From a virus (lineage: Duplodnaviria; Heunggongvirae; Uroviricota; Caudoviricetes): a stretch of DNA of 8,216 bases. Position numbers and translations under genes: made by a program. Positions within the stretch are counted from its first letter, which is position 1; every line of letters begins with the position of its first letter. This document shows, in pieces, positions 4,800-5,655 of the stretch. The DNA lies in the IMG/VR virus record IMGVR_UViG_2698536618_000025. The stretch is one strand, 5' to 3'. The notes under the pieces were generated by a model. It saw nothing but the letters and a program-made list of their open reading frames with translations. It was not told the DNA's origin and did not search any database.

Positions 4800-5016
4800 A
4801 ACCCCCCTCCCCATTTTCACAATCAGCAACAAGAATATTTTTAGCGTCATTCAGCGACCGCGTGGCGGTGTATCGGATACATTCCAGGGCGAACAATGTG
4901 TATTCTTCCCGTTCTTCCTTTTGTGCAAGCCCTGCTGTGCATTCAATATCAATAAGCGCATGCATCAGCGTAGTGAGCGCGGCGGCTGCTGCGTCCGGTG
5001 TGGTTTTATTGCACAT
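4792..5016 (-). CDS. Hypothetical protein (74 aa)
   Basis: ATG at 5016 with AGGAGG 6 nt upstream (the track start at 5058 is a GTG extension); overlaps the stop of the upstream ORF by 11 nt. Confidence 0.5.
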   Translation of the reverse strand: MCNKTTPDAAAAALTTLMHALIDIECTAGLAQKEEREEYTLFALECIRYTATRSLNDAKNILVADCENGEGGYA

Positions 5017-5566
5017 GGCACACCTCCTGACGAATACGGGCGGCGAATACAGCAACACAACCGGACGGGCAACGGCTACGTGCTTCGCGTTCCGTCCAGG
5101 CGGTTACGTGGATGATTTGATGTTCTGACGCGCCAAAGATGATAAAGCGCCAGAGAAAGGCGGTTTGAGAATGTACAAGGGTAGGGATAGTAGCCATGTT
5201 GGCAGCCTCCTCAGTGTGGTTAAGATAACCGCCACCGGAAACGCCAATTTCGCTGGTGGCGGACTGTACAGGGTTGGCGTAACCGGACACTGAAGAAACC
5301 GGCGCGGATTGCTCCGCCCCCGTACAGCCCACCATTGATAAGGTGTGACTATGCGGCACAAAAAAACACGCGGGGCGCGTGTTATGCGCTTCAGTTTTGC
5401 CCAGGACGCCAATCCCGGCACCCGTTTTATGAGGTGCGCGGGAATCATAGCTATTTTCGACACTGGCGATCAACTGGTTTTTTTCTCCGATATTCAGGGC
5501 CAGAAAACGCCACACAAAGGCCGTTTGTGTGTGTACAAGGTGTGGTATATGATTTACGGCAACCAT
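5006..5566 (-). CDS. In-frame fusion of two paralogous small-ORF modules, possibly Icd-like (host cell division inhibitor family); may be two genes or gene plus pseudogene
   Basis: Copy 1 starts ATG 5566 (TAGGAG SD): MVAVNHIPHLVHTQTAFVWRFLALNIGEKNQ... Copy 2 starts ATG 5197 (GAGGAGG SD): MATIPTLVHSQTAFLWRFIIFGASEHQ...HVTAWTEREAR..., ending at 5006. Differences between copies are mostly synonymous third positions, so the peptide is under selection. No stop codon separates the copies. Icd-like assignment is from recollection of the F.W.F...EAR pattern, unverified. Confidence 0.45.
   Translation of the reverse strand: MVAVNHIPHLVHTQTAFVWRFLALNIGEKNQLIASVENSYDSRAPHKTGAGIGVLGKTEAHNTRPACFFVPHSHTLSMVGCTGAEQSAPVSSVSGYANPVQSATSEIGVSGGGYLNHTEEAANMATIPTLVHSQTAFLWRFIIFGASEHQIIHVTAWTEREARSRCPSGCVAVFAARIRQEVCHVQ
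5357..5382 (-). terminator. Intrinsic-terminator-like hairpin on the minus strand, inside the copy-1 reading frame
   Basis: Minus RNA: AACACGCG-CCC-CGCGUGUU followed by UUUUUGU (8-bp perfect stem, U-tract). Lies between the two paralogous modules. Confidence 0.35.
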
Positions 5567-5597
5567 AACGGCTCCTAGTTTACGTTGTTGGTTAGAA

Positions 5598-5639
5598 GCC
5601 CTGCGAGTGGTAATGACACTTGCGGGGCTTTGCTTTTTT
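5598..5639 (+). terminator. Plus-strand-specific terminator-like hairpin (candidate end of an antisense RNA)
   Basis: Arms 5598-5609 / 5617-5628 form a 12-bp stem with two G-U wobbles that pair only in the plus-strand RNA; 7-nt loop; followed by TTTGCTTTTTT. No plus-strand gene ends here. Confidence 0.4.
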
Positions 5640-5655
5640 AAGTGCTCTTGTGTTA

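Follow-up and report, generated by a model that had tools for sequence, protein, structure and literature searches.

A probable P4-like immunity region with an Icd-derived read-through frame and a putative cis-antisense RNA in a phage-satellite island

In the immI operon of phages P1 and P7, an RNA of the C4 family has targets on both of its sides; the downstream one overlies the ribosome-binding site of a gene of the Icd family, and expression beyond this gene depends on its translation. The mechanism of P1 c4/icd was reportedly worked out by Citron and Schuster in 1990 and by Riedel et al. in 1993. In satellite phage P4, according to the account of Forti et al. (1999) given in PMC10111431, a constitutive promoter within eta yields a quickly terminated transcript that is processed to CI, and Kil is a truncated form made on read-through; full-length Eta is made solely from the upstream late promoter, and its translation prevents termination, whereas eta nonsense mutations cause it. 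The IsrK-orf45-anrP region of Gifsy-1 in Salmonella is organized in a comparable way: IsrK, a structural homologue of P4 SeqA, is a terminated small RNA (sRNA) that shares one promoter with a read-through transcript, a CI-like (C4-like) RNA, STnc1160, is processed from the region downstream, and translation of the open reading frame (ORF) lying over it controls the next gene (PMC4825925). Here, we describe a related region on the minus strand of an 8,216-nucleotide stretch of viral DNA (IMG/VR record IMGVR_UViG_2698536618_000025, Caudoviricetes; referred to as the window at its full length), in which genes of the isrK and C4 RNA families lie inside a 186-codon ORF at the head of a replication operon. 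We consider it probable that this is the immunity or early-control region of a phage-satellite island, homologous to that of P4 and built like it. Its core is the known P4/P1-type C4 immunity with an eta/kil nested frame, already noted in phage-inducible chromosomal islands (PICIs); C4 and isrK matches in Gram-negative PICIs are on record (PMC10111431). What would distinguish it from the described systems is an Icd-derived start of the bypass frame and a putative cis-antisense sRNA over that start.

Sequence and folding show which RNA elements the window contains, their order, their structure, and their complementarity. Positions 5361-5437 (minus) match the isrK/P4 seqA-type family RF01394 with 66 bits (gathering threshold, 50; E=9e-13), and the match contains the three hairpins of the family, the last of which is an intrinsic terminator (5383-5361) that was found independently by a terminator scan. 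Positions 5252-5339 (minus) match model positions 1-87 of the C4/P4 CI-type antisense RNA family RF01695 with 77.6 bits (gathering threshold, 45; E=2.4e-14). The minimum free energy fold of this RNA (-46.9 kcal/mol, z=-5.2) reproduces the consensus layout of the family: a closing stem surrounds hairpin 1 (5317-5304, with a GCAA-containing loop) and hairpin 2 (5303-5282), the loop of hairpin 2 displays b' (UUUCUUCAGUGU, 5298-5287), and the a' sequence ACGCCAA (5280-5274) forms a single-stranded joint. Members of the C4 family are released from a primary transcript by processing, with RNase P acting at the 5' end. Inside the long frame, a putative PLE-like promoter of the sigma-70 type (TTGATC, 18-nt spacer, TATGAT; 5444-5473, minus; 9/12 in the promoter scan) ends 6 nt before the first base of isrK (5437), with the predicted transcription start at about that position; it aligns with TTGCCT-18-TATAGT directly upstream of the P4 isrK match, and equivalent promoter hexamers occur in two other loci.

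Sites complementary to C4 are found on both sides of it. The upstream sites lie inside isrK and consist of a1 (AUUGGCGU, 5413-5406) and b1 (ACUGAAG, 5395-5389); the c4-a1b1 model of Rfam matches there weakly (5450-5398, 21 bits, below gathering). The downstream target region (seqC, or a2-b2; 5206-5262, minus), delimited by complementarity read from the sequence, begins with a hairpin (5262-5229; -18.9 kcal/mol, z=-3.3) whose 5' arm is common to the C4 closing stem and whose loop displays a2 (UUGGCGU, 5247-5241), and it ends with b2 (ACACUGAGGAGG, 5217-5206), which is the Shine-Dalgarno sequence (SD) of the downstream one of two Icd-like modules, copy 2. The C4 loop and b2 can form twelve contiguous pairs, 3 of them G·U, and a' and a2 can form 7 Watson-Crick pairs. 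In duplex scans, isrK and the copy-2 SD region were the two best C4 partners, although the duplex energies (71-nt windows) are noisy against a background mean of -21.8 and serve for ranking only, so that contiguous complementarity was relied on. The start of the upstream module, copy 1, was considered as an equivalent of seqA/a1b1 and rejected: its SD and start region pair with C4 at background level, and the upstream targets are inside isrK. The a1b1/c4/a2b2 (seqA/seqB/seqC) layout of P1 and P4 is present here. The preliminary description of this DNA had proposed an RNA-based termination and antisense switch at the head of the replication operon, and the identification of isrK and C4 bears this out. 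The three hairpins on which it was partly built are all present, within a few bases, but they are not independent attenuators: the first is the terminator of isrK, the second a hairpin within C4, and the third is made up of the C4 3' arm and the target sequence downstream.

When P4 was scanned with Rfam, C4 (74.9 bits), isrK (60.8 bits), and c4-a1b1 were found in the order seen in the window. The resemblance to P4 that had been suspected is therefore real, but the proviso that it came without sequence identity does not hold, given these scores and the 66 and 77.6 bits of the window. Both regions have, in the same order, an internal promoter (a predicted one in the window), an IsrK/seqA RNA with its terminator, a C4/CI RNA, and a target over the SD of an Icd/Kil gene, and in both an ORF runs in frame from upstream of the internal promoter to the end of kil at the head of a satellite replication operon. 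In P4, the ORF that contains isrK and C4 has 214 codons from its first ATG (three adjacent Met codons give 197-199 aa) and ends as a 65-aa protein (MATTLTPSHPEF...); these are the nested eta and kil (Forti et al. 1999). In the window, the corresponding frame (5006-5566, minus) extends over 186 codons from the ATG at 5566 to the stop at 5006, with no stop in between, as had been described; it crosses the internal promoter, isrK, the isrK terminator, C4, and the target site and ends as a nested Icd/Kil-like gene. We assign it to the eta/kil arrangement because the P4 layout is alike and because P4 Kil and copy 2 are both members of the NCBIfam family NF033153, the Icd-like host cell division inhibitors, with 76 and 57.1 bits, respectively, against a cut-off of 25.

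There are also clear differences. Instead of the Eta N-terminus (MMMPALQKLPFSG...), to which its own N-terminus is unrelated, the window frame has at its start the 5' end of another Icd-like gene, complete with an SD; the best PHROGs are 6928 for P4 and 29966 for the window, the latter spanning the whole 186-codon ORF, and the similarity of the two long ORFs is limited to the RNA-coding part and Kil. The spacer from isrK to C4 is about 86 nt shorter in the window, the frame adjoins a divergent Arc/HicB-like gene, and a putative cis-antisense sRNA covers its start. Moreover, the window has a RepA-type helicase together with capsid and terminase genes, as PICIs do, whereas P4 has the alpha primase. 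In P1, the C4 system controls the antirepressor (ant) and not a replication operon. In Gifsy-1, the overlying ORF, of 45 codons, begins only after IsrK and is coupled to an antiterminator regulator in a different frame, and IsrK is a trans-acting activator; a long frame from upstream of the promoter is not described there.

The two Icd-like modules of the minus strand each consist of an SD, an ATG, and the beginning of a similar peptide, and their ATGs (5566 and 5197) are 369 nt apart. Copy 2 is an Icd/Kil-family gene of 63 aa (5006-5197; SD GAGGAGG at about 5212-5206) and the first translated gene downstream of the internal promoter (5473-5444); it leads the replication operon in tight coupling, since its stop overlaps the ATG (5016) of the next ORF by 11 nt. 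Copy 1 (5483-5576) comprises the SD AGGAG (5576-5572), the ATG, and 28 codons from the beginning of an Icd-like gene, here called type A. The core repeat measures 46 nt (76% identity, offset of 360 nt), and BLASTP aligns the two peptides with 15/27 identities (E=2e-9). Earlier, the copies had been taken to differ mainly at synonymous positions; this is correct for a 15-codon core (7 identical, 5 synonymous, and 3 conservative codons) and not over 21 codons, 9 of which are non-synonymous besides the same 7 identical and 5 synonymous ones. A hidden Markov model (HMM) search, proposed at the same time, placed copy 2 in NF033153, as stated above, and gave no match for copy 1, because only about 15 of the residues encoded by its 28 remaining codons overlap the profile. 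Copy 1 is nevertheless recognizable as a gene fragment, since it is identical at 80/87 nt to intact genes and is related to copy 2 by the above BLASTP match.

These intact genes are found in sister islands (L004, from O157:H7 SS17, L005, and L006), which share an integrase/AlpA/DUF4222/RepA backbone with the window and are without isrK and C4. There, an intact 65-aa Icd-like gene (MVAVNHIPHLVHTQTAFVWRFLALSAGESQIIHVTAWTEREARNRCPSGCVAVFAARIRQ...) heads the replication operon and is preceded by the same hairpin and SD as copy 1; comparison with homologous islands, which the preliminary description had suggested, thus shows the gene behind copy 1 in its whole form. Copy 1 is identical to the first 87 nt of the intact type-A gene at 80 positions, and the 3' part of copy 2 matches the 3' part of the same gene at 90/93, whereas the 5' part of copy 2 matches it at 43/66 only. 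The icd copies are therefore of chimeric origin. By these matches, the window holds an Icd-like gene with a cassette inserted after codon 28, copy 1 being the 5' end of the gene that is whole in the sister islands; the cassette, of 369 nt and frame-preserving, brought in the predicted promoter, both RNA genes, the SD, and the beginning of a different icd allele. An Icd-like gene is thus involved twice, as the idea of tandem paralogues implied, but copy 1 is a 5' fragment and not a paralogous gene.

The cassette also carries its first seven or so codons, MAT(I/V)P(A/T)L, to unrelated downstream genes. In the IMG/VR loci L007-L126, it extends some seven codons into the regulated gene (about 106 nt past the C4 core), and the start MAT(I/V/T)P(A/T)L is joined to Icd/Kil-like proteins and to at least two other N-terminal types (MATVPALTRLNDEDLHKLSY... 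and MATIPALTQPEITIDNGQAV...), which suggests modular exchange of the RNA switch plus translation start. Other long ORFs begin differently (MRNHTTHPQGRDSHNLNK...), with a residual WRF motif present or absent, and some stack three fragments; recombination evidently has a hot spot here, and yet the frame is kept. In L171 and L192 (1501-2152), an intact type-A icd is followed by a C4 RNA and then by a more divergent second Icd-like gene, which sits in a 167-aa Ash+Icd ORF; no isrK match reaches gathering there. A profile scan of genome contigs with the Icd alignment returned a single locus, and viral contigs were used instead.

P22 Sar, which acts against ant, and lambda OOP, which acts against cII, are terminator-ended cis-antisense RNAs of about 70-85 nt that lie over an SD and AUG. 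An RNA that would work like these is predicted on the plus strand of the window at 5561-5644 (about 84 nt) from a terminator scan, folding, and comparative alignment; it would likewise start within the 5' end of its target gene. It has no sequence or Rfam relationship to Sar and OOP, and its target would be an Icd-like or bypass-frame start in satellites. The putative promoter, TTGTGT (5525-5530) and TATGAT (5548-5553) with a 17-nt spacer, lies inside codons 5-14 of copy 1 and agrees with the consensus at 8/12 positions, just under the scan threshold. The terminator (stem 5595-5631, T-tract to about 5645) was called by the scan, and its hairpin has -27.9 kcal/mol on the plus strand (z=-5.7) compared with -16.3 kcal/mol on the minus strand, in agreement with the strand-specific terminator and the antisense transcript over the copy-1 ribosome-binding site that had been pointed out before. 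The predicted RNA folds with -36.6 kcal/mol (z=-4.4) and is complementary in full to the copy-1 SD and AUG; its stem-loop 1 presents an anti-SD (CUCCU) in the loop and an anti-AUG in the 5' arm. Copy 2 has neither the promoter (TAGTAG is found instead) nor the terminator. Another plus-strand promoter-like site (5199-5226), which would give an antisense RNA of about 400 nt, was dropped in favor of the conserved promoter at 5525-5553. A sense-strand terminator-like hairpin followed by GCGTTTTCTG (5511-5531, minus) was also rejected as not significant (-8.6 kcal/mol, z=-1.5); it occupies the copy-1 codons HTQTAFVWRF, where it overlaps the putative -35 hexamer of the antisense promoter.

Conservation of the antisense module is strand-specific. 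Among 25 diverged sequences, the -35 hexamer and the 17-nt spacing are invariant, and the -10 hexamer is TATGAT or TATGCT; the 25 include a lineage with another peptide (MAIKEHSLLFIHTQT...), in which the homology ends right after the -35 hexamer. In the two-hairpin structure of this alignment, 97.6% of the cells are paired, compared with 90.8±0.8% after shuffling (0/500) and at most 50% when the structure is slid, and five pairs show compensatory changes. Read as the sense strand, the same cells are paired at 81.5%; there are 94 G·U cells on the plus strand as opposed to 2 in the sense reading. The unique hairpin variants, 31 in all, have at least five different inner stems, and in 29 of them the antisense strand (plus in the window) is the more stable one. 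The hairpin and T-tract are kept at the left edge of the icd module, where many E. coli matches start, and blastn matched the sRNA-bearing region in several hundred complete E. coli genomes. A covariance model that we built for the sRNA from the aligned sequences gives 88 bits in the window; two other islands, L053 and L068, whose N-terminus is different, have diverged copies (47 bits) in the corresponding place, upstream of isrK-C4.

Related sites occur elsewhere. In L001, a 94%-identical E. coli island, a weaker match to this model (4545-4624, 39.8 bits) lies about 750 nt upstream of the main one, and the window has no counterpart of it above the model threshold. Stand-alone sRNA modules with another short ORF are present in L157, L171, L180, L192, L201, and L203 (at about 675-800); they adjoin a ribbon-helix-helix (RHH) gene, about 750 nt upstream.

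Database searches did not connect the RNA with a described one. Rfam 15 returned no family for 5561-5644, and a permissive scan gave just a chance-level match to a Pseudomonas leader (26 bits against 55, E=0.08); no counterpart came up when 50,697 phage records were searched with blastn, and the sRNA model had no match in a 3.5-kb P4 segment. A literature search on antisense RNA tied to Icd-like genes found nothing relevant, which is not proof of novelty. Taken from comparative sequence evidence, a plus-strand sRNA over the copy-1 start is likely and, as a prediction, well supported. It is about an even question whether it represents an undescribed sRNA family of cis-antisense RNAs (about 84 nt) that lie over the start of the first replication-operon gene in PICI-type satellites of E. 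coli. In such a family, the target would be an Icd-like gene or, as here, an eta-like frame, and each RNA would have a promoter in the first 14 codons, an anti-SD loop, and a terminator.

The plus-strand promoter and hairpin could alternatively be the promoter and a leader attenuator of the regulator gene at 5701-5892, or a face-to-face promoter arm causing transcriptional interference, with the pairing to the ribosome-binding site being incidental. We regard this as unlikely, though it is the best of the alternatives. It fits the presence, in the window and in the sister islands inspected, of a small same-strand regulator gene just past the terminator (56 nt in the window), for which the scan found no separate promoter, and the T-tracts of some variants are weak (for instance, UUCGUCGUUUC), so that read-through into the regulator would be allowed. 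However, the boundary between the variable regulator modules and the conserved module lies exactly at the terminator T-tract; the module therefore travels with the icd start and not with the regulator. In addition, an anti-SD in the loop of stem-loop 1 and compensatory changes that track changes in the SD region are typical of an antisense regulator.

Whether the open frame reflects more than common descent was addressed with C4 loci that were drawn from IMG/VR by a degenerate C4 pattern, a selection independent of any ORF. The in-phase frame is open for at least 194 nt upstream and at least 211 nt downstream of the C4 core in 106/112 unique loci. A second count covered 306 nt, from roughly where isrK begins up to the ATG, in 89 unique sequences (median identity between pairs, 63%): the frame of the downstream gene is open in 83 and has a stop in 6, whereas the other two frames are stopped in 89/89 and 87/89. 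As a control, the alignment columns of the C4-to-ATG stretch were resampled independently (65 sequences): stops in the kept frame are seen in 3/65, compared with 45±4 expected, and the two control frames agree with expectation (61 against 62 and 46 against 51). These comparisons clearly point to selection, in phages and satellites of diverse kinds and not just in P4, for keeping the frame open across the C4 cassette.

This result also bears on the possibility that copy 1 and the long frame are dead recombination remnants of two island types, in which the frame is open merely by descent and function is confined to the internal promoter, the IsrK and C4 RNAs, and the icd gene. Copy 1 is indeed a truncated gene fragment, the N-termini of long ORFs are mosaic, some of them stacking two or three Icd-like fragments, and the scan found no clear upstream sense promoter; RefSeq splits a 99.6%-identical locus into separate pseudogenes (an 'ash family' pseudogene and an Icd-like pseudogene, followed by an Icd-like gene). 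Against this, the frame is open in 83/89 diverged C4 loci although resampling predicts stops in about 70%, with the two control frames behaving as expected, and indels between isrK and C4 are in-frame, such as the P4 insert of about 30 codons. In P4, eta nonsense mutations cause termination, as Forti et al. (1999) are cited in PMC10111431. Furthermore, the SD and ATG of copy 1 are intact, and a conserved antisense RNA module lies alongside. We therefore rate dead remnants as a poor explanation, somewhat poorer than the leader attenuator.

The conservation of the long ORF at the protein level is not informative in the same way. Pfam PF10554 (Phage_ASH) matches residues 73-166 of the 219-aa ORF with 62.3 bits (gathering threshold, 26), which is exactly the translation of isrK plus C4 (5198-5449, minus); for this reason the name Phage_ASH, or 'ash family protein', says nothing on protein function. 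A 94%-identical locus is annotated as one 186-aa Icd-like protein, and the protein database contains 775 clusters of fused ORFs, all with Phage_ASH. Conservation of an ORF of about 190 aa had been named beforehand as a sign of an ordinary gene; such ORFs are conserved, but this does not discriminate, because the RNA genes and selection for an open frame can explain it. That the 186-codon ORF is an ordinary two-domain protein (Ash plus Icd) with selected amino acids and incidental hairpins is hardly credible: PF10554 and PHROG 29966 do model a protein family with 775 homologous ORFs, and no function is known for the P4 Eta protein itself, but the 'Ash' segment coincides exactly with two RNA genes, whose Rfam scores greatly exceed the thresholds and whose folds are those of their families, the Gifsy-1 study (PMC4825925) found the segment conserved in nucleotides and not in amino acids, an active-type promoter and an intrinsic terminator lie inside the ORF, and the same RNA cassette is joined to unrelated downstream genes.

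Upstream of copy 1, a putative PLL-like control region for copy-1 transcripts may lie at 5656-5707 (minus), as read from a TTGACA -35-like hexamer (5707-5702) and two palindromes, AGTGGTCACCT (5701-5691) and AGGTGGCCACCT (5667-5656). The AlpA-like gene ends at 6272 and is separated from copy 1 by a divergent pair of genes plus 134 bp of control region. The proximal gene of the pair (5701-5892, plus, 63 aa) probably encodes an RHH (Arc/HicB-like) regulator: it matches Pfam HicB below the cut-off (E=8.5e-4), Arc weakly, and PHROG 228 'Arc-like repressor' with E=5e-7, and its homologues in related islands are labelled 'HicB family antitoxin'. Its TTG start was picked by alignment with the L171 homologue. 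The second gene is orf62 (PHROG 21027; 5935-6123, plus), beyond which a terminator-like site is located (6222-6246). In related islands, TTGACA is kept and the palindromes differ along with the divergent regulators, which looks like exchangeable repressor/operator specificities. The sister islands likewise keep the layout while the regulator (YlcI/YnfO or HicB-like) and the palindrome (for example, GGTAATTACC or GTGTACAC) are exchanged.

On the reading that we prefer, a P4-like immunity region, the following sequence of events can be proposed. In the resting island, transcripts from the internal promoter would, by analogy with P4, mostly end at the IsrK terminator or be processed to stable C4. 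C4 would pair with its two targets, in isrK and at the copy-2 SD, and block kil/icd translation, as in the systems described above, and this block would lead to premature termination of the polarity type ahead of the replication genes. If an upstream promoter near 5700 fires, probably under the control of the divergent Arc/HicB-like protein and the two palindromes, the transcripts would carry the copy-1 start. That start is not complementary to C4, and ribosomes would therefore translate the whole 186-codon frame; in crossing the terminator and the RNA genes they would keep the terminator and C4 structures from forming. Transcription could then enter the replication operon, as with Eta translation in P4. 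The plus-strand sRNA, from its putative promoter inside copy 1, would in turn check translation of the bypass frame.

Several observations weigh against this reading. Every dynamic step of it is carried over from P4, P1, or Gifsy-1. The window frame is uncoupled from the alpA/vis homologue, about 700 bp off, unlike that of P4, and the promoter scan upstream of copy 1 found TTGACA with no acceptable -10 hexamer and called no sense promoter; the source of copy-1-bearing transcripts is uncertain because no convincing upstream sense promoter was found. The long frame is shut in six C4 loci (L014, L039, L078, L099, L100, and L110), so that C4 systems do not require it. Homologous long ORFs have widely varying N-termini, which fits the view that any start will do and fits neutral remnants as well. 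As to the sRNA, its structure was taken from the same alignment as the pairing counts, with related sequences, and the antisense promoter hexamers overlap codons of conserved residues (His6, HTQT), so that coding constraint could contribute to their conservation. At least two of the loci with a shut frame, L039 and L078, are on 88-89-kb contigs, a size from which one might guess at P1-like elements.

The genes around the region identify the minus strand of the window as that of a phage-satellite island. Its products are an integrase (8216-6975), an AlpA-like helix-turn-helix protein (6478-6272), a RepA-family helicase (4040-2640), to which the replication operon reaches, a small terminase (1713-1087), and a major capsid protein (927-1), all taken from the ORF list, and the switch region follows the AlpA-like gene and precedes the replication genes. 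Near-identical islands with the same annotation occur in complete E. coli genomes, where they adjoin tRNA-Pro/yejM or ptsN-npr; examples of carrier strains are E. coli NIID080884, with 99.6% identity across the locus, and JNEC-KY176. A 221-aa ORF rich in Ser, Arg, and Cys (5592-6257, minus) that runs opposite the two small plus-strand genes has probably been called in error; RefSeq lists its homologue (L001 4627-5343) as a 'hypothetical protein', and some genomes have it joined to the Ash/Icd ORF (317-318 aa).

Taken together, the proteins annotated as 'Icd-like protein' (186 aa), 'ash family protein', or Phage_ASH are mostly translated RNA genes in a read-through frame, and annotation pipelines that consider proteins only overlook the actual regulators. 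The mechanism of translating through the immunity RNA to escape from it is generalized beyond P4, and this locus shows the RNA immunity cassette as a mobile module that enters the first gene of a satellite replication operon in frame. If the predicted sRNA is real, it would be a new and widespread regulator of satellite induction, and the window would carry two RNA locks in series: C4 on the kil/icd start, and the sRNA on the start of the frame that overrides C4.

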